From an uncultured virus (IMG/VR IMGVR_UViG_3300036791_001015) (taxonomy: Duplodnaviria; Heunggongvirae; Uroviricota; Caudoviricetes), in IMG/VR virus record IMGVR_UViG_3300036791_001015: a stretch of DNA of 54,642 nt; one strand, written 5' to 3'. The position numbers were made by a program, and so were the translations under genes. Below, in pieces: positions 5,703 through 26,816 of the stretch; the first letter of the stretch is position 1, and every line of letters begins with the position of its first letter. The notes under the pieces are model-generated. The model was given only the letters and a program-made list of their open reading frames with translations. It made no database searches and was not told where the DNA came from.

Positions 5703-5763
5703 ATTGCAATCTGAGCGGCTCTCCACTATATGTATTGTGCGGACGGGAAATGGTTTCCGCCGC
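5703..5763 (+). promoter_or_regulatory. Promoter plus conserved bulged hairpin (copy 1)
   Basis: ATTGCA-N17-CTATAT-N7-GCGG A CGGGAA ATGG TTTCCG CCGC. Confidence 0.8.
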
Positions 5764-5780
5764 CAATGGAGGAGCCTCCA

Positions 5781-7142
5781 ATGGCCATGAATTGGCCCCG
5801 GTGGATAAAGCGGGAGTGGTCGCGGGTCGCGGCTGGGGCGCATAGCGCCAATCCGCAGTCCTTCGCGATGCTGCCATCCGCGCTGCGGGAGCCATCCTAC
5901 GGCGATATCGACGCGTGCTTTGAGCACTACCGGCAGATCGCGCTAAACGCCAGTCGGCACGTCGAGATTACCCTCAATCCCGACAGCAGCATTCCTTACA
6001 ACATGGCGCGGTGCGTGTGGCTGGCGGATGAGCTAGCCAGCGACAGCCCGGTCCTCTCGGGCTGGCGGCTGAGCAGCGCGCGGCGGCGGGCCTTCGACCG
6101 GTTTAATTTCACGCTCGTCCCCTTGGGGCGGTCGGCGGGTCTCGCGGTGCAGGTCAGTCAAGTGTCGCGGCCCCGGTGGCGGAGCGATGCGGCCTGGAAC
6201 ATCGTGCGGGTCAAGTGGCTTGAGGCACAGGTCTCGCATCTGATCCTCAGCGGTGCCGCCAACGTCGAGACCGTGCCAGTGACCGTGCCTGAGGCGGCGG
6301 TAACGGGTGCAGTCGGGCCTGCGGTCATCGTCTGGAACGAGCAGACCTACGGTGTCGAAATCGAGTGCTACCGGCCACTGAATATCTCGATGGCCGAATT
6401 CGCGCGGCGGCTGACCGATGCGGGCCTGCCCTGCCAGGATGAGGGTTACAACCACTTGCTGCGGGGCCACTGGAAGATCGTCACGGATGGTTCGCTCAAC
6501 AACGCGCCTCCAGGGCATATCGGGATGGAGGTAGTCTCTCCGATCCTGCAAGGCGAGACCGATTTCGAAAAAATCCGGACGGTCTCCTCGATCCTGCTCG
6601 CGGCACGGTGCCGGATCAACAAGTCAACCGGGCTGCATGTCCACGTGGGTCTGCCACGGTTGCGGAATGAGCCGGTCGGTCTGCCGATGAATGTTCTGCG
6701 GCTTTACAGCCATTATGAAAAGGTGATCGACAGCCTGATGCCGGAAAGCCGGCGGGGCACGATGGCCTACTACGCCCAGCCGATCGGCTTTGGTCCTGGG
6801 CTGGCGCGGGCCACCACGACCGCTGCGCTGCGGCAAGCCTACAATGTCGGTCACATGCACCGGGAGCGGTATCGGAAGGTCAATCTGGAGGCGGTCGGGC
6901 GGCACGGCACGCTGGAATTCCGGCAGCACGCTGGGACGATCGAGGCCGAGAAGATCATCAACTGGGTGACGCTGGTCCTCAAGCTGATGGCGACCGCCAG
7001 CACCGCGCCAGCGCTCCCTGAGGGGCCTGCCACACTCTCTGGTCTGATGAGCTTCATCGGGGCCAATGACGCGGCGGAGGCCTTCTGGACACGGCGGCAG
7101 GCACTGCTCGCCCCCGCGAATATGCGGGCCGCAGCAGACTAG
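5781..7142 (+). CDS. Putative amidoligase (COOH-NH2 ligase, Amidoligase_2 type) with an N-terminal extension
   Basis: TYGVEIE, WKIVTDGSL, EVVSPIL, TGLHVHVG, RYRKVNL and TLEFRQHAGT motifs; GGAGGAG RBS. Confidence 0.9.
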   Translation: MAMNWPRWIKREWSRVAAGAHSANPQSFAMLPSALREPSYGDIDACFEHYRQIALNASRHVEITLNPDSSIPYNMARCVWLADELASDSPVLSGWRLSSARRRAFDRFNFTLVPLGRSAGLAVQVSQVSRPRWRSDAAWNIVRVKWLEAQVSHLILSGAANVETVPVTVPEAAVTGAVGPAVIVWNEQTYGVEIECYRPLNISMAEFARRLTDAGLPCQDEGYNHLLRGHWKIVTDGSLNNAPPGHIGMEVVSPILQGETDFEKIRTVSSILLAARCRINKSTGLHVHVGLPRLRNEPVGLPMNVLRLYSHYEKVIDSLMPESRRGTMAYYAQPIGFGPGLARATTTAALRQAYNVGHMHRERYRKVNLEAVGRHGTLEFRQHAGTIEAEKIINWVTLVLKLMATASTAPALPEGPATLSGLMSFIGANDAAEAFWTRRQALLAPANMRAAAD

Positions 7143-7154
7143 ACATTAAACTGA

Positions 7155-7181
7155 CGGGCGGCGGGATCGTCTCGCCGCCCG
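7155..7181 (+). terminator. Strong GC hairpin after the amidoligase (no U tract)
   Basis: CGGGCGGCGGGA-TCG-TCTCGCCGCCCG. Confidence 0.45.
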
Positions 7182-7205
7182 AATTGCAAGCAAGGGAGCA
7201 CACCA

Positions 7206-7463
7206 ATGGTTAGGACCAATGACGGCCAGACACTGCGGGCGATCGAAGCGGAGGATATCGTCGCGGAGCTAAACGATCTGAGCTACACGCCGGAAGATAC
7301 ACCGGGGCAGTTTATGACCGCGAGCGCGGGACGCATTCTCGCCTTCTCAGGCGCGAAAATCCGCACCGACAATGCCGCAAACTATGTCGCCGATCTCTTC
7401 AGTTTTGGCTTCCTCACCACTGACGAGGAACCGCTGAAGGGAAAGCCCCGCGCGAAGCCCTGA
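7206..7463 (+). CDS. Hypothetical protein
   Basis: GGGAG RBS; 85 aa. Confidence 0.7.
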   Translation: MVRTNDGQTLRAIEAEDIVAELNDLSYTPEDTPGQFMTASAGRILAFSGAKIRTDNAANYVADLFSFGFLTTDEEPLKGKPRAKP

Positions 7464-7567
7464 GAGCCTGATGGATGCCAAAGACGGCCTGGACACCGTT
7501 CGACGCCGCTTTGCGCATCCTGAGGGGCCGCAGCGGCTCCAGCGCCGATCCTGAGAGGGAGGAGACC

Positions 7568-8596
7568 GTGTTAAACACCAGCGGGATTAATCTTCGTGGC
7601 TACCACCGCGAGATTATCGACTATATGCGTGATACGTATGGCATCGAGGATGTCACGGTAAAGCGCGGAGGGAAGCACCTTCAGCTTGAATATGTCTACG
7701 CGGGGCGCAGGCACAAAAACACCCTGCCCCGTAACAATTACAGCGACCGCAACTGGCTCGACACCAGAAAGCACGATCTACGAAAAGAACTGGGTGAGCC
7801 ACCGTCGCTCGCCCCCGACGCCAAGAGTAAAAGGAGCCTCGATGACATGACCAACGAAATTCAAGCCAAGGCCGATCTGATGACCACCACGGCGATCGGG
7901 GCGGTGATCGAGCCGATCGCCAAGCCGACGATATCGCAGCCGCAGCCGATCTCGCCGGGCACTGGCAAGACCACCACCACCAAGCCGGTGGTGCAGCAGA
8001 AGACATTTGCCTGCACGATCGGCGCGCTGAAAAACGATATCGCCTTCTATCTCGGACGCGAACTGGCCGAGGCAATGGACCGGCAGTTTGGCAAGAACCG
8101 GCGCTATGTCGTCGTCTATCACTACCCCAACGCCTGGACCGCCAAGCCGTCGCGCGACGCAGGACGGGCGATCGAGGAGCCAAACCACCGCCTGCGCTGC
8201 ACCGGAACCGAGGTGATAAAGCGGCTGGGGGGCCGGTTCCCTGCAACCAAGGCCGAGGCGATCGTGCGGCACAACCGTGTCGAACTGCGCCTGACCGAGC
8301 CGATGGAACTGGTCAAGGCGATCTTGGACGCGATCGAGACGCCGCCTGCGCAGGAGGCCGCTCGCCCGGCGGCTGCACCTTACACCGCGCCCATGCCAAT
8401 ACCGGAACCGGTGCCTGTGCCGGAACCGCCGCCTGCGCCACCACCACCACCACCGCCGCCGGTCAATCAACGCGAGCGGCTGCGCGCCGTACTGCGGGCG
8501 ATAAAAGAAATCGAAGACGAAGGCATCTACACCCTAATCCCCGGTGATCAATGGCGCTGGCGGGCCTACGACATCAAGCTGGAGGATGACGAGTGA
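7568..8596 (+). CDS. Multidomain hypothetical protein with a HicA-like N-terminus and a Pro-rich linker
   Basis: GGAGGAG RBS plus GTG start; VTVKRGGKHLQLEY resembles the HicA/dsRBD GxH motif. Confidence 0.7.
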   Translation: MLNTSGINLRGYHREIIDYMRDTYGIEDVTVKRGGKHLQLEYVYAGRRHKNTLPRNNYSDRNWLDTRKHDLRKELGEPPSLAPDAKSKRSLDDMTNEIQAKADLMTTTAIGAVIEPIAKPTISQPQPISPGTGKTTTTKPVVQQKTFACTIGALKNDIAFYLGRELAEAMDRQFGKNRRYVVVYHYPNAWTAKPSRDAGRAIEEPNHRLRCTGTEVIKRLGGRFPATKAEAIVRHNRVELRLTEPMELVKAILDAIETPPAQEAARPAAAPYTAPMPIPEPVPVPEPPPAPPPPPPPPVNQRERLRAVLRAIKEIEDEGIYTLIPGDQWRWRAYDIKLEDDE

Positions 8597-8817
8597 TGAG
8601 CATACCAGCGACCAACGAGATCAAGATGTACTTCCACTGCAAGCGATGTCTGGCGGAGAAACCACCGGATATCTCGCCTCGTGACTGGGCCGCAACCGAG
8701 GCCGGGTTTACCCCGCAGGGCATCCAGATTTGGTGCAAGCGGCACGAGATCAACATCATGCACATGGATTTCGAAGGGCAGAAGCATCCCGCTAATGCCA
8801 GCGCACTGGAGGACTGA
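8593..8817 (+). CDS. Conserved phage hypothetical protein
   Basis: HCKRC...GIQIWCKRH; coupled start. Confidence 0.7.
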   Translation: MMSIPATNEIKMYFHCKRCLAEKPPDISPRDWAATEAGFTPQGIQIWCKRHEINIMHMDFEGQKHPANASALED

Positions 8818-8819
8818 AC

Positions 8820-9089
8820 ATGCAAAATCTTTCCGCACGGATCGACGCCGAGACGTTCACGGCACTGATCAGTGGCAAAGTGGTCGAGCTTGTCGCGCTC
8901 GACACACGGCATCCTAGCAATGGCGAGGACGGCAGACCGGTGGTTATGGTCAGGACGATCCTCGCCGATATCGGCTTCGCTCAGATGCGGGCCTTGCTGG
9001 ACGAGGCCGAGGCGGCGGCGCGGGCCAAATGGGAAGGCGAACTGCCCGAGCCGTGCATCATCCCGCCGGGCGAGCCGCCGCGCCCATGA
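8820..9089 (+). CDS. Hypothetical protein
   Basis: GGAGG RBS; tightly packed. Confidence 0.65.
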   Translation: MQNLSARIDAETFTALISGKVVELVALDTRHPSNGEDGRPVVMVRTILADIGFAQMRALLDEAEAAARAKWEGELPEPCIIPPGEPPRP

Positions 9090-9251
9090 TCAAGGAGGCG
9101 GCGGATTGAGGCCCAACATTATCGATATCGGCGCGGCCAGTTGCATGGTGCTCCTTGCGTATGTCAATCGGGCGTCGCATTGGTACTGGCCGCTAATATC
9201 CTCCGCGACCGGTATCCTCATCGGCAGTCTGATCTCTTCATGGTGGCTCTG

Positions 9252-9491
9252 ATGGAACTGACCGAGCAAGAGCAGTATCTGATCCGCACCTATCTGGCCG
9301 ATGCCACCATGCGCATCCAGCGGGAACTCGGCTCGCCCAAGCACGGGCCGGATGAACTGCTGCCAAGCGTCCTGGCGCAACTGATCTCGCTGGCGCACAT
9401 GATCGCCACGATCAATCTCGGTCTCTCCGAGGAGGACTTTATCGAGGCCTGTATGGCGGGGAGCGACACCGCCTCAAAATTCCGCAACTGA
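9252..9491 (+). CDS. Hypothetical protein
   Basis: TGATG coupling; helical. Confidence 0.6.
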   Translation: MELTEQEQYLIRTYLADATMRIQRELGSPKHGPDELLPSVLAQLISLAHMIATINLGLSEEDFIEACMAGSDTASKFRN

Positions 9492-9492
9492 C

Positions 9493-9885
9493 ATGGCTAT
9501 CGTGTATTTCAAGCTTATCCGAAAGATCGCGGTGCCCTGCCGCGATATGTTCGACTGGGCGATGTGGTTTGAGGATGCCGACCGGCAGGTCGGCTTGACC
9601 GATATCGGCCCGATGACCGTCTCGACGGTCTTTATCGGTCTGCACCACGGCTTAAACGACAAGCCGAAGCTCTTCGAGACGATGATCATGAGCGGCGACG
9701 AGAAGATCATCAAGCTGAGCGAGCGCTCCAGGCTGATCCAAGATTTCCTCGATTACCAGACACGCTGCGAGACATGGGGCGAGGCCGAGGAGATGCACCG
9801 CGTCGCCTGTGCGTGGGCCACTGAGCAACTGGCCAAAGTCGATAATATTATTCGCCTGCCGGATCGATCCTCCCTTGACAAATAG
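9493..9885 (+). CDS. Conserved phage hypothetical protein
   Basis: VSTVFIGL...KLFETMI...CETWGEAEEMH motif recurrent in phages. Confidence 0.75.
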   Translation: MAIVYFKLIRKIAVPCRDMFDWAMWFEDADRQVGLTDIGPMTVSTVFIGLHHGLNDKPKLFETMIMSGDEKIIKLSERSRLIQDFLDYQTRCETWGEAEEMHRVACAWATEQLAKVDNIIRLPDRSSLDK

Positions 9886-9903
9886 GGGGCTAAAGCCCCA
9901 TAT
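9874..9903 (+). promoter_or_regulatory. Sigma70-type promoter
   Basis: CTTGAC-N18-CCATAT then AAGGAGG RBS. Confidence 0.65.
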
Positions 9904-9926
9904 GTAAACCGAAGGAGGGCGGTCCG

Positions 9927-10040
9927 ATGATGATGTTCGTGATGGCCGTCTTGTTCGCCTCGTTCGCTGCCGGCGCCTGGACCAGTGGGTCCACATGGGG
10001 CGAGGAGGTTTTCGGGAAATTCGAGGCGGTGGAGGCCTAA
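9927..10040 (+). CDS. Small hydrophobic peptide (37 aa)
   Basis: AAGGAGG RBS; MMMFVMAVLFASFAAGAW. Confidence 0.55.
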   Translation: MMMFVMAVLFASFAAGAWTSGSTWGEEVFGKFEAVEA

Positions 10041-10041
10041 C

Positions 10042-10149
10042 ATGCTTGAAGCTGTTGCCGTTGCTCTGGTTGTCGTCGCGCTCTGGTACATGTCGGCGAT
10101 GGAGGCCAAGGAGCCTCACCAGTATCAATCATCTCAGGCGCTGGGTTAA
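10042..10149 (+). CDS. Small membrane peptide (35 aa)
   Basis: GGAGG RBS; MLEAVAVALVVVALWYM. Confidence 0.55.
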   Translation: MLEAVAVALVVVALWYMSAMEAKEPHQYQSSQALG

Positions 10150-10160
10150 GGGAGATCACG

Positions 10161-10388
10161 ATGACGATCAAATGGACACGGGAGCCGGATGCCGATCCTG
10201 GCTTCTGGGATAGCGCCGATGGCCGGTTCTCGATCTGGCCCCGGTTCAATCACTCGGAGAGGCCGTCGAGCTACCGGGTGCGGGACAACGCCGCAAAATA
10301 CGAAACCACCCACTACACCCTGCGGGACGCAAAAGCGTGGGCGGTGCGGCAGGCGGCGCGGAAGATCAGCGTCCCAACGGTGTTGTGA
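10161..10388 (+). CDS. Hypothetical protein
   Basis: GGGAGA RBS. Confidence 0.7.
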   Translation: MTIKWTREPDADPGFWDSADGRFSIWPRFNHSERPSSYRVRDNAAKYETTHYTLRDAKAWAVRQAARKISVPTVL

Positions 10389-10594
10389 TGAACGGATTGA
10401 TCCCAAGCGAGATAAAGGCGCTGGCCGAAATCCGCGCCGCGTCTAACGTGTTTGCCGCCTCGCATGACCGCGCCGATTTTGACGCGATGAAGCGGCTCGC
10501 CACCAAATGGGTCAAAGCCAATGCGGCGCGGGCGGCAAGGCGGCGGAGCGCGCTGCGCACCGTGCGGTTTGCCTACGCGCATCTTCCCGGTTGA
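10388..10594 (+). CDS. Hypothetical protein
   Basis: TGATG coupling. Confidence 0.6.
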   Translation: MNGLIPSEIKALAEIRAASNVFAASHDRADFDAMKRLATKWVKANAARAARRRSALRTVRFAYAHLPG

Positions 10595-10650
10595 ACAATC
10601 GTGGAAAACATGCTATATGTAAATCGGACGCGGGAAACGGTTTCCGGTCC
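10590..10650 (+). promoter_or_regulatory. Promoter plus conserved bulged hairpin (copy 2)
   Basis: GTTGAA-N17-CTATAT-N7-GGAC G CGGGAA ACGG TTTCCG GTCC. Confidence 0.85.
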
Positions 10651-10669
10651 CAACAAGGAGGGCAAATTC

Positions 10670-11542
10670 GTGAAGCTCTACTGGGCCTACGGGTCAAATC
10701 TCAACAAGCGGCAGATGGCAAGGCGCTGCCCTGCGGCGGTGCCGCTGGAGGCGCTGACCGTGGAAAATCTCGTCTTGCGGTTCCGTGGCGTGGCCGATGT
10801 CGGCTATCTCACCGGAGCCTTTGCCGAGGGCGCGCTGTGGCTGATCACGCCAGCCTGCGAAAAGGCGCTCGACAGCTATGAAGGCGTCGGACCGGGCGGC
10901 TACGCCGGTCTCTATCGGAAGGTTTATTTCGACTACACCGATCCGGATACCGGCGAGACGCACAAGGTGCTCTACTACAAAATGAACCGCAGCGGGATCA
11001 TGCCGCCGGGCGAGCCTTATCTCGACAGCATCATCGAGGGCTACGCGGATTTTGGCATCGATACCCATCGGCTGGTCAAGGCGGTCGAGCATTCCTGGCG
11101 CAAAAAGCAGACAGAGGGCATCAACGGTTTTATGTCGTACCGCTGGCAAAAGGCGGGCAGGCCAAAGATGGCGCGGCCCGATCGGGTGGCGATGGTCTAC
11201 GAGGGCACCGAGCCAAGCGAGATCATGCCGCCGATCCAGCGCGACGATCTGGACGACAGCGAACTGCCGCCGTTTAATCCGCCGCCGCGCAAAAAGAAGA
11301 GGAAGATGCGGTCTGTCGGCGAAGAGCCGATGCCGGATGTCTGCCTGCGCACCGATCCGGATAATCCCAACTACTGCCGTGCGGTCACGCTGACCGAGAA
11401 GGGCGAGGATTATTTCGCCGAGAATATCAAGGCCAAGAAGCTGTTCACCGAATGGTGCTTCAAATTCTCGACGCACGTCGTCGCGGGGCTTTTGCAAAAG
11501 AAGCGGCTGACCGTCGCCATCCTTGAGAAGCTGCGCAAATGA
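10670..11542 (+). CDS. Gamma-glutamylcyclotransferase (AIG2-like/GGCT) with a C-terminal extension
   Basis: YWAYGSNLN..QMARRCP, LDSYEG and YLDSIIEGY motifs; AAGGAGG RBS plus GTG start. Confidence 0.9.
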   Translation: MKLYWAYGSNLNKRQMARRCPAAVPLEALTVENLVLRFRGVADVGYLTGAFAEGALWLITPACEKALDSYEGVGPGGYAGLYRKVYFDYTDPDTGETHKVLYYKMNRSGIMPPGEPYLDSIIEGYADFGIDTHRLVKAVEHSWRKKQTEGINGFMSYRWQKAGRPKMARPDRVAMVYEGTEPSEIMPPIQRDDLDDSELPPFNPPPRKKKRKMRSVGEEPMPDVCLRTDPDNPNYCRAVTLTEKGEDYFAENIKAKKLFTEWCFKFSTHVVAGLLQKKRLTVAILEKLRK

Positions 11543-11856
11543 TCTGCCAGACATGTCAAGGCGACGGTCGGCGGCTCAATCCTGGCCTACAGGTCACGGT
11601 TCACGACGAGCGCGTCGATATCCACAACGCGGCGGGGATGCCGGTCTTGGTCGAATGCCCCGAATGCCGAGGCAGCGGCAAGGCCAACGGCAGCGAACCG
11701 TTGCAGCGCATGCGGCTGACGATCGAGGACGTGGACGGGATGATCAGCGAAGTGTGGGCTTGTCAGCCGATGCTCAAAGCCAAGCGCGGTGCGCTGCTCA
11801 ACCGGCTCTACCGCATCCGCCACAATCTGGAAATTCTGCGGGGCGCAAATGGCTGA
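11539..11856 (+). CDS. DnaJ-type Zn-finger protein
   Basis: CQTCQGDG...CPECRGSG. Confidence 0.7.
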   Translation: MICQTCQGDGRRLNPGLQVTVHDERVDIHNAAGMPVLVECPECRGSGKANGSEPLQRMRLTIEDVDGMISEVWACQPMLKAKRGALLNRLYRIRHNLEILRGANG

Positions 11857-12700: not shown

Positions 12701-12795
12701 AGGACCGGCTCGCTTGGTCGCAGGCGGCGCTGGTGATCGCTGGCCTGTCGATCGTCACGTGGGGCCTCGTTATTTTCCTGATCTGGTTGGCCTAG

Positions 12796-14883: not shown

Positions 14884-14917
14884 ATGGCCCCCGATTAATA
14901 GCGGGGGCCATCTTTTT
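14884..14917 (+). terminator. Intrinsic terminator
   Basis: ATGGCCCCCG-N8-CGGGGGCCAT-CTTTTT. Confidence 0.7.
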
Positions 14918-15841: not shown

Positions 15842-16078
15842 ATGATCAAGGGCAGGGGCAAACGCGGCGACCGAGATACCATCATTCTCGGTCTGTCGTT
15901 TGAGAACCTAAGGCGATTGAAGCAAGACAAGCCCATCGTCATCTGGAAAGAGGAAATGGACTTGCCCCACGACATCATCATCTTCGCCGAAGAGACCGAG
16001 GCGAAGCTGATCGAGGCCGTCCGCAATCCCGAGACCATCATCCACGATCAGCACACCAAGCGTCCGCTGAAGAACTAG
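15842..16078 (+). CDS. Hypothetical protein
   Basis: GGAG RBS; ILGLSFENLRRLKQDKPI. Confidence 0.7.
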   Translation: MIKGRGKRGDRDTIILGLSFENLRRLKQDKPIVIWKEEMDLPHDIIIFAEETEAKLIEAVRNPETIIHDQHTKRPLKN

Positions 16079-17061
16079 ACCGGCAACAGGTTATGCCCAA
16101 TCGTTGATTGCGGCACCCGCTGATAGACGCGGATGTAGTCGGCGTCGAGCGAGCGCGGCAGGGCCGCGTCGTTGACGCCATAGCGCCCCGCCCAGGAGCC
16201 GCCGACCGCTAGATTAGCAAAGAGGTAGCAGCCGGGCATCGGCTGACCGTCATCCGCCACCCAGTCGTAGTTGAAGGCGAGGATCGGCTTGCGGTCGAGA
16301 TAGACGATCGCCTCAGGCCGCTTGTAGTAAAGCCCGTAGGTATGAAAGCCCTGCGACAGATCGGCGTCGCTCCAATAATACATCCACTGCCAGTTAAAGC
16401 CTTCCGCCGCCCACGTTCCGGCAAAGCCCTGCGGATTGGTGTCCCACTGCATGACCTGACCGGTGCAGTGGAGCATGTGGTTGGTATCGTCCTGGCCGTT
16501 GTTGACGATCTCGCACTGGTCGATCTCCGGAGGCCACGGGATGGACTGATCGTCGCCAGGATTGCGCTCGCTGCCAGCAATCCAGAAGCCCACCCAACTG
16601 CCGAGGAAATCCGGCCCCTTTAGCCGCCCCTCGAAATACCACTCGTTGCCATCGGCGATCGGGAAGCAGTCTTTTGAGCGGATCATCCCCGAGGGCCAGA
16701 ACTGCCCATTATGCGGCTGCGCCGTCAGATGCAGCACCGAGCCGTCGAGCACGTGGTTGCCGCTCTCGCGGTAGCGCTGCCATTCGTCGTTGAGGTAATC
16801 GAGCGTCCCGCCTTCATAGACATAGCGCGTCCACCAACGCTGCATATCAACGTTGGACATGCTGAAATTATCGTTGAGCAGCACCCGCCAATCGGGCGTC
16901 AGGCTCATGACCGGCGGTGGTTCCTCGCGCGGTGTCCGCGCCATCGGTGTCGGCTTCCAGTTGCGATCACCGGGATACATCCGCATCGGGCGCGGATGGG
17001 TGGGCGACCGGCGCGGCTTTTTCAGATCGTGACCGGGATAGGTATGCGCGGTTTGGGCCAT
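16075..17061 (-). CDS. Glycoside hydrolase family 16 (beta-glucanase-like)
   Basis: SGMIRSK, YFEGRLK, GSWVGFW, WPPEIDQCE (ExDxxE catalytic motif), FHTYGL, NLAVGGSW and DYIRVYQ. Confidence 0.9.
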   Translation of the reverse strand: MAQTAHTYPGHDLKKPRRSPTHPRPMRMYPGDRNWKPTPMARTPREEPPPVMSLTPDWRVLLNDNFSMSNVDMQRWWTRYVYEGGTLDYLNDEWQRYRESGNHVLDGSVLHLTAQPHNGQFWPSGMIRSKDCFPIADGNEWYFEGRLKGPDFLGSWVGFWIAGSERNPGDDQSIPWPPEIDQCEIVNNGQDDTNHMLHCTGQVMQWDTNPQGFAGTWAAEGFNWQWMYYWSDADLSQGFHTYGLYYKRPEAIVYLDRKPILAFNYDWVADDGQPMPGCYLFANLAVGGSWAGRYGVNDAALPRSLDADYIRVYQRVPQSTIGHNLLPV

Positions 17062-18737: not shown

Positions 18738-18738
18738 A

Positions 18739-19074: not shown

Positions 19075-19099
19075 CCGCAATATTTTTTTTGCCTGGAGG

Positions 19100-19161
19100 C
19101 TTGACATTCACTGATATATGCCCAATATGTAAGACAGAACGCGGGCAATGGTGTCCGGTTC
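19100..19161 (+). promoter_or_regulatory. Promoter plus conserved bulged hairpin (copy 3)
   Basis: CTTGAC-N17-CAATAT-N8-GAAC G CGGGCA ATGG TGTCCG GTTC. Confidence 0.8.
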
Positions 19162-19183
19162 CAACACGAAGGGAAATCCCTTA

Positions 19184-19954
19184 ATGTTCTCCACCGCAAA
19201 AAAGGTGGCGCTCACGTCCCAAGCTCCTGCCAAAGGCAAGCCGCAAAAGGCGCTCGATATGATCGAGGGCTGGGAACAACTGTGCGCGCTCGACGCGGTC
19301 AGCAAGGCGCTCGCCGGTCTGGTCGCGATCAAGAAGCAGACGATCGAGGACGGCCCCGTCACCGATCTTCTCATCACACGCGGTCTGGCGACCGGGCGCA
19401 AGCCTGAAAGCCTCTCGCCGGTCGAGGGAGACGGCAAAGGCTCAGCCTATATCGCCAAGCGCTCGACGCGGTCCGCGCTCAGCGAGGACGAGATCGCATT
19501 GCTGACCGAGACGGTCGGCGAGGACGCGGTCGAGACCTACGTCGAGACGGTCGAGGCCCAGCCAGCGCTGCTGGCAGTCAATCCGGCCTACGCCGACGAC
19601 GAGGCGTTGCTGCGGCGGATCGACAAGGCGCTCTCGGGTGTCAAGGGCATTCCGGAGGATTTTATCATCCAGACCGAGGCCCAGTCGAAGACGGTGGTAT
19701 CGGACGAGGCGGTCAACGCCATGTTCGCGCTGTCGCCCGAGAAGCTCGACGCGATCTTCGCGATCCTCGCTGGGATCAGCCTGCGGCCTGTCTTCGCCGG
19801 CGGTCTGGAAAAGGCTTGGGAGGTGGTGAAGCCTCTCATCCCCGAGGCCGAGAGCCTCCCCGAGAAGCCCAAGAGCCGCAAGGTCGCGCCGCCGACGCCA
19901 GTCGCGCGGAACCGGGCTGAACTGCGCGAGCAGTTCCGCAAGTCGGCGGGCTGA
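19184..19954 (+). CDS. Hypothetical protein
   Basis: 256 aa with strong GC3 bias. Confidence 0.8.
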   Translation: MFSTAKKVALTSQAPAKGKPQKALDMIEGWEQLCALDAVSKALAGLVAIKKQTIEDGPVTDLLITRGLATGRKPESLSPVEGDGKGSAYIAKRSTRSALSEDEIALLTETVGEDAVETYVETVEAQPALLAVNPAYADDEALLRRIDKALSGVKGIPEDFIIQTEAQSKTVVSDEAVNAMFALSPEKLDAIFAILAGISLRPVFAGGLEKAWEVVKPLIPEAESLPEKPKSRKVAPPTPVARNRAELREQFRKSAG

Positions 19955-20050
19955 CGAGACAAGCGAGCGGGGCGACTTCCTCCTTTCCAGGCTTGCCGGT
20001 GATCCTGCCTCCCCGCGCACCGGCTCTCCCTCCTACCGAAAGAAACTGCA

Positions 20051-20437
20051 ATGACTTCCCGCTTTTTTCTCGTGCTCACCGCGCTGCTCGCCTTCGCCTT
20101 GATGACCCAGATGATCCCCAAGGCGCACGCTCAACAGTCGCCTGCAACATCGGAGTTACAGGCGGAGAAACAAGCTATTCGCTCGTTTCGCGCACTGGGT
20201 ACCACCAAGCTGGCGTGCCTCTCCACCCGCAATGACGACAAGAATATCATCGAGACCTGCGGTCTCGATGATACCGATGTGCCGGGCTTCTTTGTCTACA
20301 TGGGCGATATGGGCCTGCGCTTCTTTGCTCCTTGGGTCGAGGCGCATTGCCACCGGACGGTCCTCAATATCCGCTGCGAATACAAGGGCTACTGGCAGGA
20401 ATTCGCCCAACGCCGCTGTGCGCTCTGCGGCGGATAA
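20051..20437 (+). CDS. Secreted Cys-containing protein
   Basis: Signal peptide ending AHA. Confidence 0.7.
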   Translation: MTSRFFLVLTALLAFALMTQMIPKAHAQQSPATSELQAEKQAIRSFRALGTTKLACLSTRNDDKNIIETCGLDDTDVPGFFVYMGDMGLRFFAPWVEAHCHRTVLNIRCEYKGYWQEFAQRRCALCGG

Positions 20438-20460
20438 AAAGCGTCTTCGGGCGCTTTTTT
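20436..20460 (+). terminator. Intrinsic terminator with a UUCG loop
   Basis: AAAAAGCGTC-TTCG-GGCGC-TTTTTT. Confidence 0.85.
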
Positions 20461-20473
20461 ATTTGTTCGCGCA

Positions 20474-20524
20474 CTTGACATATGGGTCTATATTCCCCAT
20501 ATCTAAGGGGAAGGAGAAATCACC
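20474..20524 (+). promoter_or_regulatory. Promoter-RBS cassette (copy 1)
   Basis: CTTGAC-N17-CCATAT-CTAAGGGGAAGGAGAAATC. Confidence 0.85.
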
Positions 20525-20716
20525 ATGAACGCAAAATTGACGATGGCCAAATTGATGAGCGCCGCCAAAGCCTCGGAGAAAGGCCCGGTCAGTTACGGCT
20601 TCTGCGTCGCCTGCGGCAAGAAGCACAGCGGCGTCGAGCCAGACGCGCGGAAATACCCGTGCAAGGGCTGCGGCAAGAACGCGGTCTATGGCGCGGAAGA
20701 ATTGCTGATGAGCTAG
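20525..20716 (+). CDS. Small Zn-ribbon protein
   Basis: CVAC...EPDA...CKGC. Confidence 0.8.
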   Translation: MNAKLTMAKLMSAAKASEKGPVSYGFCVACGKKHSGVEPDARKYPCKGCGKNAVYGAEELLMS

Positions 20717-20726
20717 GAGAGCTAAA

Positions 20727-20990
20727 ATGAACAAGCTTCTCGCCGCCGCCGCAATAGCGCTCTGCGCGCTCGCGGCCCCGACCACAGCGCATGCCTTTGC
20801 CTGCATGCCGCCCGATCCCGAATGCACCGGAAGCCATGTCACGCCGCTGCCGCACGTCGAGCCGTGCAAGTGGAACGGGACCGATTACGTCGTCAATTCG
20901 ACCTGCGTGATCCTGCCAAAACCGAGCACCCACAAATGTCCTGCTGGATATCGGTGGGTCGCTGAGATGAAGGCGTGCAACGGCGACTAA
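20727..20990 (+). CDS. Secreted Cys-rich protein
   Basis: Signal peptide ending AHA; six Cys in the mature part. Confidence 0.7.
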   Translation: MNKLLAAAAIALCALAAPTTAHAFACMPPDPECTGSHVTPLPHVEPCKWNGTDYVVNSTCVILPKPSTHKCPAGYRWVAEMKACNGD

Positions 20991-21006
20991 AAATTTTGCC
21001 TGCGCA

Positions 21007-21057
21007 CTTGACATCTGATGTGATGTTCCCTATATCTAAGGGGAAGGAGAAATCGCC
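21007..21057 (+). promoter_or_regulatory. Promoter-RBS cassette (copy 2)
   Basis: CTTGAC-N17-CTATAT-CTAAGGGGAAGGAGAAATC. Confidence 0.85.
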
Positions 21058-21294
21058 ATGAACATCCCGAAATACGTCGCTGAGAAAGCCCTGTCCTCCG
21101 GAAAATTCACCGCCGCCGAATTGGCGCTGATCGAGCCGGTGCTCTACCGGTACTGCTGCCCCGATTGGTCCGAGGACAGCTACGAAACCACATGGGGCTA
21201 CTTCCGGATCGTGCTGGCCTGTCTGACGCTGGCCGCCGGTAAAAAGCTCGATAAGCTCGACTGGGACAAGCTGATGGCTGATGTCCCGATGTAA
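21058..21294 (+). CDS. Hypothetical protein
   Basis: Directly after the cassette RBS. Confidence 0.7.
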   Translation: MNIPKYVAEKALSSGKFTAAELALIEPVLYRYCCPDWSEDSYETTWGYFRIVLACLTLAAGKKLDKLDWDKLMADVPM

Positions 21295-21307
21295 GGAGGA
21301 GCACACG

Positions 21308-21772
21308 ATGATCTACGTTCTGCCCAACACCCACATTTCCGCCGAAACTGCCTATGAGGTCCCAGACTACCCGTTTGGCTTCAAACTGCGCTGCACGATG
21401 CGCTACTGGATCGAATTCCAGCCCAAGAAGGGCTTCCGGCTGTGGATGCAGTCGAGCAATCCCAAGCGGCCCGGTACGTGGAACAAGCCGAAATCGGGCA
21501 CGTATTCGAAATTCGGCGCGGCGCTTTATCTCGATAATGACGGCCACGTGAAGTGCGCCGGGCTGTCGGAATACAGCAACGTCGAGGAATGCGAGGCCTT
21601 TGTCGATATGTACCTCGCGGGCGTCCCTGCGGCGGGCCAAAAAGTCACTAAGGCATGGCTGGCCGCGAAACAGGCCTACTACGTGCGGCAGACGAGGCCG
21701 ATCGATCCGGTCGCCGCCGCGCACGCCCACGTGGCCTTTGTCAAGACGATCGCCGCTGAGGAGGGATCATGA
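21308..21772 (+). CDS. Conserved phage hypothetical protein
   Basis: AAGGAGG RBS; DYPFGFKLRC...WNKPKSGTY. Confidence 0.75.
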   Translation: MIYVLPNTHISAETAYEVPDYPFGFKLRCTMRYWIEFQPKKGFRLWMQSSNPKRPGTWNKPKSGTYSKFGAALYLDNDGHVKCAGLSEYSNVEECEAFVDMYLAGVPAAGQKVTKAWLAAKQAYYVRQTRPIDPVAAAHAHVAFVKTIAAEEGS

Positions 21773-22008
21773 CGGAAGACACCCCCACTTCCGAACAGAA
21801 AAAACGAGCCGAATGGGATTTGCTGCTCGCCGATATTGAATACCGCCAGGAGCAACTACGACTGGCACGCCAGGATCATCGATGGAAGCCCTGGCAAATC
21901 GTGCTGCCGGTCGTTACTGGCGCGCTCACAGCGGGCGCAGCATTGTTCGCCGCTGGGGCCGCTTTTATGAAGCTATTCGGTGGCGGAGGAACAGCATGGC
22001 CAACATAA
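21769..22008 (+). CDS. Coiled-coil plus C-terminal TM protein (paralog B)
   Basis: ADIE, RWKPW, then a hydrophobic helix. Confidence 0.75.
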   Translation: MTEDTPTSEQKKRAEWDLLLADIEYRQEQLRLARQDHRWKPWQIVLPVVTGALTAGAALFAAGAAFMKLFGGGGTAWPT

Positions 22009-22010
22009 AA

Positions 22011-22038
22011 GCTCCGCCCTTTGGCGGAGTTTTTTTTT
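22011..22038 (+). terminator. Intrinsic terminator
   Basis: GCTCCGCC-CTTT-GGCGGAGT-TTTTTTTT. Confidence 0.85.
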
Positions 22039-22047
22039 GCCTGCCCA

Positions 22048-22098
22048 CTTGACATATAGCGCGATATGCCCCATATCTAAGGGGAAGGAGAAATCGAG
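22048..22098 (+). promoter_or_regulatory. Promoter-RBS cassette (copy 3)
   Basis: CTTGAC-N17-CCATAT-CTAAGGGGAAGGAGAAATC. Confidence 0.85.
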
Positions 22099-22293
22099 AT
22101 GGCCAACGTTGTTGTCAAGAAATCCGCCGCCGCCACTTGGTCCGTATCCGTGGAGGGCGTCGAGGCTGGGGTCGTTTCCTTCTTTTGGAAGGGCAGCAAG
22201 GGCGTCTTCTGCCACTCGCTGCTGGTCAAGCGGGGGGCAGTCTTCCCGTCGCTCAAGGCGGCGGTCGCCAGCATGGTGGAGATGGCGGCATGA
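22099..22293 (+). CDS. Hypothetical protein
   Basis: After the cassette RBS. Confidence 0.7.
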   Translation: MANVVVKKSAAATWSVSVEGVEAGVVSFFWKGSKGVFCHSLLVKRGAVFPSLKAAVASMVEMAA

Positions 22294-22496
22294 ACCCAAT
22301 CGAGGAACACATCCTAGAGGTAGCGGCGCGCCGCATCGTGCGCGCCCATGTCGAGGCGCGGCTCACCGGCTTCGACATCAAGAAAGTGCGCCGCGTCATC
22401 CAATCGCTGGTTAGGCGCAAGCTGCTTTATCAATGCGAGAAGCCCCTACGAAATTATTTCGGATCGGGCGAGGCCGGATATCGGAGGCTCCCGTGA
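22290..22496 (+). CDS. Small winged-helix-like hypothetical protein
   Basis: ATGA coupling; VRRVIQSLVRRKLL. Confidence 0.55.
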   Translation: MNPIEEHILEVAARRIVRAHVEARLTGFDIKKVRRVIQSLVRRKLLYQCEKPLRNYFGSGEAGYRRLP

Positions 22497-23134
22497 AATA
22501 CGACACTTACAAATATCTTTGGCCTCCACGGCCCGAAACCAAGATCGCGCCAACCGATCTAAAGGTGATCGAGGATATGGGCTGGTGGGGGCAGGCCAAG
22601 ATGAACGGGACGCTTTGCACGATCTATCAGCCCGCCTTCAAGGACCGCCAGAAGCCCTTTGCGATGGGGCGGCACGGCCCCGACAACATGCTCGCATGGC
22701 AACCGGGCGAGGCATGGCACTGTTTTGCCGACACGCTGGCCAACGGCTGGTACGTCTTTGTCGGCGAACTACTGCATGACAAGGGCGTCGGCGTGCGCAA
22801 CACGATCGTGCTGTTTGATCTGCTGGTCGAGGATGGCGAATATCTCGTCGGCATGCCTTATAGCGAGCGGTTCCACCGCCTCGCGCAGTTGCTCGCGATC
22901 TACCGCGATAATCCCCGCGTCGAGGCAACGCACAAGGAATATAACGAGGGAATATGGTTGATCCAGAACCACGCGCGGGCCTTCCGGCAATGGTTTGACG
23001 CGCCCGCGCCCGCGATGGTCGAGGGGCTGGTGTTCAAGCAGCGTGATGCCAAGCTGCGGCTGTGCAGCCGCGCAACCGCCAACAAGGGCTGGCAGGTTAA
23101 ATGCCGTCATCCCAAAGCCAATGTCTCGTTTTGA
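22493..23134 (+). CDS. ATP-dependent ligase / capping-type nucleotidyltransferase, adenylation domain only
   Basis: Motif I QAKMNG, III FVGEL, IIIa LFDLL, IV EGLVFK, V WQVKCR; GGAGG RBS plus GTG start. Confidence 0.8.
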   Translation: MKYDTYKYLWPPRPETKIAPTDLKVIEDMGWWGQAKMNGTLCTIYQPAFKDRQKPFAMGRHGPDNMLAWQPGEAWHCFADTLANGWYVFVGELLHDKGVGVRNTIVLFDLLVEDGEYLVGMPYSERFHRLAQLLAIYRDNPRVEATHKEYNEGIWLIQNHARAFRQWFDAPAPAMVEGLVFKQRDAKLRLCSRATANKGWQVKCRHPKANVSF

Positions 23135-23147
23135 GGAGCATGCTGAA

Positions 23148-23270
23148 ATGCTAATGATCGCTGGGGGCATCCTCATCGCCTTCGCCGTCATGGGCGCGCT
23201 GCGGCACATCGGTGCCGTCGCGTTTGTGATCCTCCTGCTGCTAGCGCTTGGCCACTGTTCTGGGAGCTAA
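23148..23270 (+). CDS. Small membrane protein
   Basis: GAGGAG RBS; two hydrophobic stretches. Confidence 0.5.
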   Translation: MLMIAGGILIAFAVMGALRHIGAVAFVILLLLALGHCSGS

Positions 23271-23433
23271 CTCCATGCCGCGCATCCATCCCGCCGTGTT
23301 GAACATGGCTTACGCCACAATGGACCAGAAATCGCGCCGCTGTTGGTGCTGGCCCGTGGTCGCGATCGTTTGCGCCGCGTTTGCGTACCTACTGTTTATG
23401 CGTGTTCTGGCCCATCCATAACAAGGAGCGACC

Positions 23434-23622
23434 ATGCCGTTAGACGCAACCAATATCGACATCGTCCACGCGGCCCAGCGCTGCGTCGAGGAGTGGCTCA
23501 ATCATCTGTGCTACCTCGATCCCAAGGACGAGCGCTTTGCCCCTTCGCTGGCCTCCTACCGCGACGCCATCAAGCTGCGCAACCGGCTGGAGCGCAAGCT
23601 GACGATCCGGAGAGCACGATGA
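23434..23622 (+). CDS. Hypothetical protein
   Basis: AAGGAG RBS. Confidence 0.65.
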   Translation: MPLDATNIDIVHAAQRCVEEWLNHLCYLDPKDERFAPSLASYRDAIKLRNRLERKLTIRRAR

Positions 23623-23891
23623 CAATGCGGGTGCAAAAGAAGCAATGCAAGACCTGCATCTTCCGATCAGATGTCTGGCCCCCCGAGCGACTGGCCGAGC
23701 TTCTCGACCAAATCCGCGATCCAAAGATGGACGGGTTCTTTGACGGCTATCGTCTCTGCCACCATTCCAACGACGCGGTGTGCGCCGGTTTTTGGGCACG
23801 ACACAAGGATGACTTTGCCTTGGGGCAGATCGCCCAACGGCTCGCCTTTGTCGAATTTGTAGAGGATACCGAGCGAGACGATACCGATTGA
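23619..23891 (+). CDS. Zn-binding hypothetical protein
   Basis: CKTCIFR...CHH...CAGF. Confidence 0.7.
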   Translation: MTMRVQKKQCKTCIFRSDVWPPERLAELLDQIRDPKMDGFFDGYRLCHHSNDAVCAGFWARHKDDFALGQIAQRLAFVEFVEDTERDDTD

Positions 23892-23897
23892 ACAGCC

Positions 23898-23926
23898 CTT
23901 TACTTTGGCAGAATTAAGCCCTATAT
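23898..23926 (+). promoter_or_regulatory. Sigma70-type promoter
   Basis: CTTTAC-N17-CTATAT. Confidence 0.6.
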
Positions 23927-24133
23927 GTAAGATGCTATGAAACCAACATGGAAAACCCACCGCACGTGGGTGCCCAAAGATCAGCGTCCGGAGCGCCTAC
24001 AGCGCTCCCCAGTGGGACTGGAACTGCTCAAGCTTGGGCACACGCGGGCGCGCAGCGCCAAGCACTACAGCCGCAAGGGAGCGCAAGCGAGGTATATAGC
24101 TAGCGAACACGATTTCGCAGAAAGGAATAATTA

Positions 24134-25183
24134 ATGAGCACCGATCCACGCACAGAAGCCCTTTTAAAGAAGGGTGCCTACAAGTTTCAGTATGTGGCCA
24201 AGGAGCCGTTCACCAATATCGATCTTCCGGCAAGCGAGATCAATCCAGCGCGGCTCAACCGCAAAATCGATATCTTGACGGTGAACCAGTATGGCTGCGC
24301 GATGCTCGATGGCGCGGTCTTCCCCGCCATCGTGCTGTTGCGCCAAGACCGCGCGAAGCATATCGTCGCGACGGGCATGCACCGGATTAAAGCGGCGCTC
24401 GACATCAAGAAAGACTGGTTCGACGCCTATATCGTTACCGAGACAGATCAATTCCGCTGCGACGCGCTGATCCGCCTGCTCAATAGCATCGAGGGGCGCG
24501 GTGACACCGTTAGGGACCAGTTGCGCCATGTCGTCTCGCTTCATGAGATATACCCCAAGCACTCGTTGGCTGAGCTTGCGACGATGTTTAATCTTACCAA
24601 GGGCACCGTTCTAAATTCTTGGAACGAGCATCAGGGCATTCAACGCGCCAGCCGTCTCGGCTTCGACTTTGAGGGATCGCAGCGCCAGCCGCAAAACACG
24701 ATTGTGGCGCTAAACACGATCGGCAGTGATCTTGTCTATGTCAAAGCTGCCGAATTTGTCGTTCACTTCGATGTGCCCGGCAGCGAAGTCACCGAGATCG
24801 TCAAAGAGCTAAAGGAAGTGCGGCATCAGGGAGAAGGTGCCGAGATCAAGATCGTCCAGAAGCATCACGATATTGCCGAAGAGCGCTATCATCGGGCAAA
24901 GCTGCGCACCGGCAAGACCAAGTCAACCGAATGCGTCAAGTTTATCGGCAAGTGTAAGGCACTCAGCCGCCTCGTCCGCCGTGGTATCGAGCACTTGCAC
25001 CTATCGGCTCTGGGCATCTCGAATTATCCAGATGCTCTTGTCTCACTTGAAGATGCGATGGACAATTTGGCAAAGGTCAAGGCTGAGATCGAACGTATCC
25101 AACGGCTGTCAGCATCGGCACCGGGCGGATCAGGCGGTAGCGGGGGATCAGGTGTACCGATCGCCGCCGCGCCGCGCTCGTAA
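24134..25183 (+). CDS. ParB/Srx-like N-terminal domain protein
   Basis: AMLDGAVFPAIVL...IVATGMHRIKAA (ParB GxHR motif), followed by an HTH-like segment. Confidence 0.7.
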   Translation: MSTDPRTEALLKKGAYKFQYVAKEPFTNIDLPASEINPARLNRKIDILTVNQYGCAMLDGAVFPAIVLLRQDRAKHIVATGMHRIKAALDIKKDWFDAYIVTETDQFRCDALIRLLNSIEGRGDTVRDQLRHVVSLHEIYPKHSLAELATMFNLTKGTVLNSWNEHQGIQRASRLGFDFEGSQRQPQNTIVALNTIGSDLVYVKAAEFVVHFDVPGSEVTEIVKELKEVRHQGEGAEIKIVQKHHDIAEERYHRAKLRTGKTKSTECVKFIGKCKALSRLVRRGIEHLHLSALGISNYPDALVSLEDAMDNLAKVKAEIERIQRLSASAPGGSGGSGGSGVPIAAAPRS

Positions 25184-25198
25184 CATGGTATTCTTCCT

Positions 25199-26308
25199 AT
25201 GCCTTTGAGTTGGCGACAGAAATGCGTTGAGCGCTTAGCATCAGACCCAACAAACTGGTTACGTTTATCTGAGGTCTTTGCCGAAGTCGAACGGGATATT
25301 CCCGTTCACTACGCTATGCGCAGGCAGCGTAGACCGACCAACGATGTCGGTCTCAATACCGCGCGTTGGCGCATGTTCCTGTCCCATGTTAGCCCGCTCG
25401 TCGAGCGGCGGGCTTGCTCTGGGGACACGTTTTGGCGGGCGCTGCGTACTGATCTGGTGCGCTTGCTTCCCGAAAAGGAACCCTGTGAGGCTTGTGGTGG
25501 GGCACGCTATCTCACTTCGTGGGGAAATAAGCGCGGGCGCGGGAGTGGCCGGGCCTATGCTTGTCTAAATTGCTCGAAGCCGCAGTCGATTGAACCAATA
25601 ATTATAGAGTGGATTGATCCGGCTATACTAATTGAACCTACAGTGGCCAAGCCGCTACCTAAGCCTCTACTTAGACTTATCCCACCCACACAGGCAATTG
25701 CGCCTAAATCTCCACCTAAGCCGCAGCCTAGCCTGAGGAGGATAACCGCTACAGTACCTGAAAGGCCAACAAAGCATTTTATAGAATTGGCATTTTTGAG
25801 TACTTATGATGAGATTTGGAAAGAATGTGTGTTTCGCTGTATGGCTCCCAAATTTCAAAATGAACCTAAGATGGTTAGAAAACTGCATCGTGCATTAGAA
25901 GCGGGTTTGGTTGATGAATTTTTCCGCCTTAATACTGCTGGGGATAGGTTTACGGAAGTTAATACAGTTATCGCAGATGTGCAGTGGAAATCAATATCTC
26001 CGGAGAAGTATATATTTGACTTGTCCAAGATTAATCTTTCCGTATTTGATAATCGTGGGGTAGAATGGGCAGCACATGCCTTAACGATACAACAACGAAA
26101 GCGTGGGGAGGATCACTTTATCGGTGCCTACGCTTTTGGTTGCGCGACCATTTTTGCTATGGCTACAGCGCAGAGGCTTCCAGTTATTGTTAATGTGATT
26201 GAGAAGCTGGTGCCTAAGCCTAAACCACGACAACCAGCAAGGACTTCCTGGCTTGCTCCTATGCGGGCAAAGGCCAGGAACGTATTAAGTAGATATCGCA
26301 ATCGGTAA
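25199..26308 (+). CDS. Hypothetical protein (Zn ribbon, Pro linker, AT-rich C-terminal domain)
   Basis: 369 aa; CEAC...CLNC. Confidence 0.65.
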   Translation: MPLSWRQKCVERLASDPTNWLRLSEVFAEVERDIPVHYAMRRQRRPTNDVGLNTARWRMFLSHVSPLVERRACSGDTFWRALRTDLVRLLPEKEPCEACGGARYLTSWGNKRGRGSGRAYACLNCSKPQSIEPIIIEWIDPAILIEPTVAKPLPKPLLRLIPPTQAIAPKSPPKPQPSLRRITATVPERPTKHFIELAFLSTYDEIWKECVFRCMAPKFQNEPKMVRKLHRALEAGLVDEFFRLNTAGDRFTEVNTVIADVQWKSISPEKYIFDLSKINLSVFDNRGVEWAAHALTIQQRKRGEDHFIGAYAFGCATIFAMATAQRLPVIVNVIEKLVPKPKPRQPARTSWLAPMRAKARNVLSRYRNR

Positions 26309-26330
26309 CAACGACAAAAAAGGCCTCTTG

Positions 26331-26573
26331 ATGAAAAACATACTGGACAAGCGGATTTTGAAATCGCGGTCATCCTGCCTCTGGCGGTTGAAGCGGATGC
26401 GGGAACTCGACGCGCCGCTCAACGTCCTGCGGACCGAGCAGATGTATCTCTGGGCGGTCCGCCAATGGTTCAAGACCGGCACGCGGGTAGCACCATTCGA
26501 CATACCGGGCTTTCAAGCGAACTATCAAAAATTCGTCCTGATCCACCATGCCGATACAAAATTTCCCTCTTGA
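26331..26573 (+). CDS. Hypothetical protein
   Basis: 80-aa ORF in operon orientation. Confidence 0.5.
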   Translation: MKNILDKRILKSRSSCLWRLKRMRELDAPLNVLRTEQMYLWAVRQWFKTGTRVAPFDIPGFQANYQKFVLIHHADTKFPS

Positions 26574-26619
26574 ATTATGAGGTAGTACACCCTATATATA
26601 TCATGCGGGAGGCCTCCGC
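26569..26619 (+). promoter_or_regulatory. Promoter with a short leader hairpin
   Basis: CTTGAA-N17-CTATAT-N7-GCGGGAGGCCTCCGC. Confidence 0.7.
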
Positions 26620-26755
26620 TCCAGATCAGACGAGCTAGCAGAAAGGCGGGTAGCGACAGATGAAAAAACCGAGATCGGCAATGCCGATCATCCCAATCCC
26701 CTCCACCGGCCCGCATGGCACGCTCCTGCGGGCCTTGGCGTATATAAAATTTCCT

Positions 26756-26816
26756 CTTGAATTACGCAGGAAGATGCCCTATATATAAAGCGGACACGGG
26801 AAATGGTTTCCGGTCC
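26756..26816 (+). promoter_or_regulatory. Promoter plus conserved bulged hairpin (copy 4)
   Basis: CTTGAA-N17-CTATAT-N7-GGAC A CGGGAA ATGG TTTCCG GTCC. Confidence 0.85.

Follow-up and report, generated by a model that had tools for sequence, protein, structure and literature searches.

In the Aca1 motif of phages, a hairpin directly follows the transcription start and is bound by a helix-turn-helix (HTH) protein; Aca motif classes track the lineage of the protein, and several operons can stand under one regulator (PMC13551039). The promoter-stem-loop (PeSL) cassettes of the T4-type phages RB49/phi1 have polyG/polyC stems, which occupy five positions in or around the promoter, and act as terminators (PMC2839356), while RppH needs unpaired first nucleotides, such that 5′ hairpins impede it and stabilise mRNA (PMC3997798). 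Here we describe a hairpin that occurs four times in a 54,642-nt stretch of DNA from an uncultured virus (IMG/VR record IMGVR_UViG_3300036791_001015), referred to as the window, which makes up the second half of a virus genome of 116.6 kb with direct terminal repeats. The hairpin stands at the predicted start of early transcripts, and its two parts change by different rules, the outer stem following the locus and the loop following the genome. The layout of promoter, leader hairpin and ribosome-binding site is already known in kind; what is new is the motif itself, together with its division into a base tied to the locus and a tip tied to the genome.

All four 25-mers that an earlier note on this DNA had placed at 5739, 10626, 19137 and 26792 are present letter for letter on the (+) strand, and each shows the architecture described there, i.e., a 4-bp outer stem, a bulged purine, a 6-bp inner stem that includes a G-T pair, and an AYGG loop. 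Each copy lies behind a promoter of the form TTG(A/C)NN-N17-(T/A)ATAT(G/A) and 4 to 7 nt ahead of a Shine-Dalgarno (SD) sequence, with 18 to 23 nt between the 3′ end of the hairpin and the start codon. With ≤2 mismatches allowed, the window contains 4 occurrences of the 17-nt core, compared with 0.16 expected (standard deviation 0.37, maximum 1; 100 shuffles), although this pattern was drawn from the copies themselves and independent support comes from homologues. No further copy was found in the remaining 62 kb of the genome with either the pattern or a covariance model. The promoters, hairpins and downstream genes, whose earlier labels were upheld by family searches, are as follows:

5704..5732, + strand: predicted sigma70-type early promoter of copy 1 (−35 TTGCAA at 5704-5709, −10 TATATG at 5727-5732).
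5739..5763, + strand: hairpin copy 1; its first base is the inferred +1, SD at 5768.
5781..7142, + strand: Amidoligase_2 gene, 453 aa, the first behind copy 1 (E = 6e-30).
10591..10619, + strand: predicted early promoter of copy 2 (−35 TTGAAC, −10 TATATG).
10626..10650, + strand: hairpin copy 2; its first base is the inferred +1, SD at 10655.
10670..11542, + strand: GGCT/AIG2-like gene, 290 aa (phrog_2520, E = 8e-17), followed by a primase-containing block.
19101..19129, + strand: predicted early promoter of copy 3 (−35 TTGACA, −10 AATATG).
19137..19161, + strand: hairpin copy 3; it begins at the inferred +2 (start at 19136), and its inner stem has a C-G swap; SD at 19169.
19184..19954, + strand: gene for a 256-aa phage protein that matches no known family or fold.
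26757..26785, + strand: predicted early promoter of copy 4 (−35 TTGAAT, −10 TATATA).
26792..26816, + strand: hairpin copy 4; its first base is the inferred +1, SD at 26821.
26836..27291, + strand: DUF6011 gene, 151 aa (family match).

The hairpin is also carried by three relatives of the source phage (G000), namely G005 and G008 in the near clade and the distant G010; G005 and G008 were found via protein searches rather than via the motif. G000, G005, G008 and G010 contain 4, 3, 4 and 10 copies, respectively, and the hairpin heads largely the same genes across them. G005 has no hairpin promoter at GGCT and one 78-codon open reading frame (ORF) inserted behind a hairpin; otherwise, the same genes stand behind the same outer stems. 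In G010, whose proteins are 40-49% identical, the tip reads GGC-AAUCRA-GYC (one copy ends in GCA), the G-G and the loop A persist, and the copies precede orthologues of the amidoligase, 256-aa and DUF6011 genes as well as other genes, including a helicase gene.

Comparison of the copies in G000, G005 and G008 revealed that the outer stem is GCGG/CCGC before the amidoligase gene, GAAC/GTTC or GAAGC/GCTTC before the 256-aa gene, and GGAC/GTCC before both GGCT and DUF6011. The loop instead changes by genome, with a G at position 1 in 3/3 G005 copies and a base other than G at position 4 in 4/4 G008 copies. In post hoc label permutations on 11 related copies from three genomes, loop differences grouped by genome (p = 0.0003) and not by locus (p = 0.96), whereas outer-stem differences grouped by locus (p = 0.002) and not by genome (p = 0.90). 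In G005, the copy ahead of the 256-aa gene combines the loop base of its genome with the C-G pair of its locus, only one base apart, so that a conversion tract could span at most 6 nt; gene conversion would thus be a hard explanation for this copy. The simplest reading of these sequences is that the genome-wise loop change reflects selection by a factor that differs between phages and is most simply phage-encoded; conversion or host differences are possible causes as well. Trees of the three downstream proteins leave the near clade unresolved, and the direction of the loop changes is therefore not polarised. Several other readings were rejected: avoidance of restriction or nuclease words (no depletion in G005 or G008), pairing of the loop with a partner RNA (only a coincidence of synonymous codons within a tail gene), and an upstream ORF opening at a loop AUG (absent in copy 2 and G008).

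The hairpin behaves as an RNA-level element, as the earlier note had proposed. Pairing holds in 97.1% of 170 cells across 17 distinct copies of the near clade (slid controls, 30-66%), and 5 of the 10 pairs show double changes, with the kinship among these sequences inflating the shuffle control; RNAalifold, unprompted, gives the same fold. Double changes affect all four outer pairs, while four inner pairs are invariant and the G-U pair is unrepaired in 17/17 copies. The sense strand folds with −11.5 to −12.8 kcal/mol versus −6.9 to −9.4 kcal/mol for the antisense strand. In one G005 copy, one outer-stem pair is broken. A constant bulge and AYGG loop, in comparison, describe the four window copies and not the family, since G008 loops read ATCG/ATTG and the amidoligase copy of G008 has no bulge, so that the bulge appears dispensable. 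Because the closing pair is broken in 10/10 G010 copies, the tip is better read as a hexaloop, RAYNRW, than as a tetraloop; in both the near and the distant clade, the five lower inner pairs are mostly kept.

Start sites were predicted from promoter sequence. Among the 37 promoters of G000, G005 and G008, 29 have a pyrimidine/purine step at one offset, compared with 0-8 at each of seven others. The start so predicted falls on the stem's first paired base in 9/11 copies of these genomes, the exceptions being window copy 3, which begins at +2, and one G005 copy, which begins a few bases later. It does so in 7/7 metagenome copies as well, and the earlier placement of the hairpin at about +1 agrees with this prediction. 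The hairpin at 3462..3484 (+), which had been listed as a looser variant, does not belong to the family: it lies behind a promoter at 3429, has the predicted start (3464) inside its outer stem, differs at the tip, and gives no covariance-model match at E ≤ 5. Many promoters of the group (window 9875-9908; G005 C1:27436 and 36915; several metagenome loci) are ACATAT-N15-ATATGT dyads, which score as promoters on either strand.

The reading that we favour, at somewhat less than an even chance, is that the element combines a 5′-terminal stem shielding the mRNA end with a site for a phage-encoded RNA-binding regulator. A subset of the early transcripts made by host polymerase would then carry a two-part 5′-terminal RNA hairpin. 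Transcription would begin at the first base of the hairpin, a well-supported step, such that the 5′ end is paired within the outer stem and thereby protected from 5′-end-dependent decay, with the stem free in sequence provided that pairing is kept; a stem free in sequence but tied to +1 suits such protection. The apical G-C, G-U/G-C and A-U/C-G pairs together with the hexaloop would be read by a phage-encoded trans-acting factor, and a conserved tip with a fixed G-U pair suits protein recognition. Since site and reader would both be phage-encoded, they would drift together, and all copies of one genome would change in step. In the weakest step, the hairpin, which ends where the edge of the 30S footprint would lie, would allow the bound protein, most likely, to damp translation, where it could hinder the loading of ribosomes, or set the lifetime of early mRNA as its level rises, as in Aca2. 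For lytic phages whose very strong early promoters are served by host polymerase, the genes concerned must be timed and kept in check. The protein site and the 5′ stabiliser of the earlier note are still the two best readings, probably combined; its regulon would be one of shifting membership, given the GGCT gene of G005 and the 10 sites of G010.

Our leading candidate for the reader, although an improbable one when taken singly, is the following protein:

28317..28976, + strand: gene for a 219-aa protein that contains an XRE-type HTH plus a further HTH-like repeat (Atlas model, predicted template-modelling score [pTM] 0.51).

In 4/4 genomes that carry the hairpin, its gene lies no more than 1.5 kb from that for DUF6011; we did not find it in the complete hairpin-less genome G011, and the incomplete genomes G012/G013 gave only a weak 31-residue match. 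A more far-reaching version, which we consider doubtful, holds that an HTH-type or other phage RNA-binding protein controls a dispersed early regulon of a lytic phage via 5′-terminal hairpins, in the style of Aca but outside anti-CRISPR loci and together with 5′-end protection, and that protein and loop have co-diverged into orthogonal pairs in G000, G005, G008 and G010. A tip that co-evolves per genome points to a phage-made RNA reader, and four natural loop variants come with four candidate proteins. If this is true, HTH-RNA regulation extends beyond anti-CRISPR operons and would supply small orthogonal RNA-protein parts for alphaproteobacteria; if the element is merely a stabiliser, it is an ordinary expression part. 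As the phage is uncultured and its host inferred, direct tests are limited to heterologous ones.

A number of observations weigh against a phage-encoded reader or against the tandem-HTH protein in that role. The presence pattern of the HTH gene also follows plain relatedness, being shared by other genes, and it rests on one complete negative genome; the fragment G034 has +1 hairpins of other sequence and no HTH match, and G011 and G012/G013, which lack the hairpin, retain both the promoter type and the 256-aa gene. Autoregulation is not clean, since in G000 and G008 the DNA between copy 4 and the HTH gene contains weak promoter-like sites and in G010 the HTH gene has a hairpin-less promoter-like site of its own. 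Whole promoter cassettes are homogenised in these phages (the leaders of G012; three near-identical window promoters), which, together with the UvsX-like recombinase, makes gene conversion a live cause; the post hoc permutation test on 11 related copies of three genomes counts on the same side. The SD lies outside the hairpin, and binding of Aca1 to a similarly placed hairpin caused no translational silencing, while Aca10/Aca12 did not bind their predicted motifs (PMC13551039).

The main competitor, a live account though on balance an unlikely one, is that the hairpin acts through structure only: it would bury the 5′ end, and an ancestral cassette would be kept alike by recombination or conversion, with no reader. 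The stem does begin at the inferred +1, where hairpins impede RppH (PMC3997798), and +1 hairpins of unrelated sequence occur in the fragments G034 and G041 and at two other promoters in G000 and G008. Cassette homogenisation is visible in the group, and recombination of PeSLs is documented (PMC2839356). Such an account, however, leaves unexplained why four inner pairs, including a weak G-U, are invariant while every outer pair varies, why the GG and the loop A survive into G010, and how conversion could alter loop bases yet spare the adjacent locus pair, the outer stem and the promoter spacer. Start-site hairpins recur in this phage group with lineage-specific tips, those of G034 and G041 having pentaloops. 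Among the hairpin-less relatives, G011 and G012/G013 each show homogenised early cassettes of a separate kind, those of G012/G013 having GTCAGAAYGGAG leaders.

There is a small chance that the hairpin is a loading site for processive antitermination, through a phage NusG paralog or, in a put-like manner, directly on RNA polymerase. The genome does encode a NusG paralog (C1:56511-57032) with RfaH as its closest counterpart, the distance to the next promoter is longer behind hairpin promoters in G000 (p = 0.02) and G008 (p = 0.055), and one strong terminator-like site (14884-14911) lies within the interval of copy 2. However, the interval effect is not seen in G005 (p = 0.68), the intervals of copies 1 and 3 are free of terminator-like sites up to their ends, the paralog also occurs in the hairpin-less G012/G013, and its gene has its own conserved upstream motif, GTCACCG-N-GTAGCCT, in three genomes. 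The NusG paralog is therefore a poorer candidate for the reader than the tandem-HTH protein. The paralog's gene lies outside the window on the (−) strand, heads the replication block, and has no match among cultured phages; in G000, G005 and G008, GTCACCG-N3/4-GTAGCCT followed by AAACAT(T/C)CC lies about 60-80 nt upstream of it, a motif that we take to resemble ops. DndB-like and Mom-like genes stand beside it (G000 C1:57184-59377, −) and were not found in the relatives compared.

We assign a similarly low probability to a DNA operator over +1 to +25, i.e., a dyad read as duplex by a phage repressor such as the tandem-HTH protein. The promoter distance is fixed, most near-clade copies contain the imperfect dyad GGAAA-N3-TTTCC, an HTH protein is encoded nearby, and concerted change by genome fits any phage-encoded reader. 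An operator would nevertheless need neither locus-specific outer arms that always pair nor the A-U/C-G and A-U/G-U swaps that keep pairing, and neither copy 3 nor G010 keeps the GGAAA/TTTCC register. By analogy with Aca2, the element may have a double role, as DNA and as RNA.

That the phage has captured a site read by an RNA-binding factor of its host, be it an ANTAR protein such as NasT or some other, has very little chance of being correct: the hexaloop of the four window copies has A1 and G4, two ANTAR determinants (PMC8934654), and different hosts could produce change by genome, but G4 is absent in 4/4 G008 and 10/10 G010 copies and A1 in 3/3 G005 copies, the hairpin is single with no overlapping terminator, and no promoter-linked copy was found in the cellular genomes searched.

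Beyond these genomes, the promoter-plus-core pattern matched 20 metagenome loci, of which 7 have a −35 box and an outer stem of 4-6 bp, a feature that the search pattern did not contain, although the query biases these 7 loci toward the AYGG loop; the outer stem of the remaining 13 measures 0-2 bp. The strict pattern gave 0 matches in IMG/VR. The distant-clade pattern matched 21 loci, with promoter context or several copies only in the G010/G026/G030 lineage. Pattern matches in cellular sequences had an outer stem of only 0-1 bp in 22/22 cases. The covariance model returned two matches at E ≤ 0.003 in 151 genomes of G045's class, neither behind a promoter (45 candidates per genome scored), a best E of 0.005 without promoter context in 16 further phage records, and no match in the leaders of three cultured alphaproteobacterial phage regions with DUF6011 relatives. 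As the earlier note had expected, the motif is absent from Rfam: a Rfam 15 search of the window gave three weak matches (E 0.17-4.5), all far below gathering scores and none over any copy. No description of the motif was found in the literature, a search whose coverage largely left out subscription papers and did not extend to sequence.

The source genome encodes a tail sheath, terminase, portal, DNA polymerase, helicases, an RfaH-like NusG paralog and a UvsX-like recombinase, and no close relative was found among the cultured phages searched. Its host is probably an alphaproteobacterium, because 35 of the 39 cultured-phage records that contain a DUF6011 relative bear the name of Rhizobium, Brevundimonas, Caulobacter, Sinorhizobium or Agrobacterium and because the early promoters of G000 are without a −7 T in the chosen register, an absence common among alphaproteobacterial promoters (PMC7703639). 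At positions 1-35,500 of the window, small genes form a block on the (+) strand, in which 14 strong promoter-like sites, all of one type, occur. The hairpin stands on 4 of these 14, and most others lead directly into a purine-rich leader and SD. A 328-aa ORF at 16075-17061 (−) opposes the direction of this block and is 72-74% identical to a G011 gene; no orthologue was found in G005, G008 or G010, and the ORF is likely a recent insertion.

Around the individual copies, a 9-bp inverted repeat (5681-5708) overlaps the −35 box of the amidoligase promoter and was not seen at the other hairpin promoters. A second, weak hairpin of GGG-N4-CCC type (19164-19184) lies over the SD of the 256-aa gene and recurs in G005 and G008. 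The 256-aa protein itself retrieves 47 proteins at E ≤ 0.001, itself included; its structure model (predicted local distance difference test [pLDDT] 81.6) has no PDB match at E ≤ 0.001, and no named Atlas family was found for it. At 26570-26700, a promoter nearly identical to that of copy 4 stands 187 nt upstream of it with a different short +1 hairpin and an ops-like GGCGGGTAGCGA at about 26646; with no clear gene before the next promoter, this unit possibly makes a short RNA.

CsrA/RsmA sites expose GGA in an ANGGA loop, the MS2 operator has a bulged A two pairs below an ANYA loop, and boxB has a GNRA-like pentaloop. The earlier note had cited all three as analogues, and none survives comparison with the relatives, where bulge and AYGG tetraloop are not invariant: none of the 27 loops contains GGA, the GG of the loop precedes U and varies, and the bulge lies six pairs below the tip and is A, G or absent, with AYNG/AAUCRA loops. 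ANTAR (EutV) motifs (PMC8934654) share the hexaloop A1 and G4 with the four window copies and differ in that relatives lose one or the other, the hairpin is single rather than dual, and no terminator overlaps it; an ANTAR gene search gave 0/5 phage genomes above the cut-off, and we do not file the element as an ANTAR site.

Like PeSLs (PMC2839356), the cassettes described here repeat a strong sigma70 promoter, a stem-loop and an SD across a variable early region of mostly unknown genes, whereas their stem is fixed at +1, lies within the transcript, has a conserved tip, and is without a U tract. The 8 nt after the stem contain 0-1 T in 11/11 copies, and none was called as a terminator; with no U tract and a fixed position, neither a PeSL-type terminator role nor a terminator in either direction is supported. 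Three near-identical hairpin-less cassettes of the window (20436-20525, 21008-21058 and 22007-22099), each with a promoter and a AAGGGGAAGGAGAAAT leader, are closer to classical PeSLs than the hairpins are, and two of them lie directly behind intrinsic-terminator-like sites. Known 5′ stabilisers are described as depending on structure. Those of the ompA/papA type resemble the present element in that the first nucleotides are paired (PMC3997798) and differ from it in that the hairpin here has a sequence-conserved, genome-concerted tip.

The element also resembles the Aca1/Aca2 motifs (PMC13551039). Both are phage hairpins of about 20-25 nt, right after the predicted start (here +1/+2), with a lower and an upper stem separated by unpaired bases, and their ends fall about 20 nt (here 18-23 nt) before the start codon; both come in classes by lineage, at several operons per genome, with an HTH reader that is a candidate here. 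Unlike in Aca1, where the reverse holds, the upper stem is conserved and the lower stem covaries, and the sites are dispersed across 21 kb of the early region. A promoter-overlapping DNA inverted repeat, an Aca trait, was not found as a dyad common to the 11 hairpin promoters examined, and searches of Pfam, PHROGs and NCBIfam for aca/acr families gave only generic HTH matches, although unknown anti-defence genes would escape them. We therefore do not file the element as an Aca motif, a decision that rests on promoter dyad and gene matches. By analogy, the element may nonetheless work as Aca 5′-untranslated-region motifs and 5′ stabilisers do.

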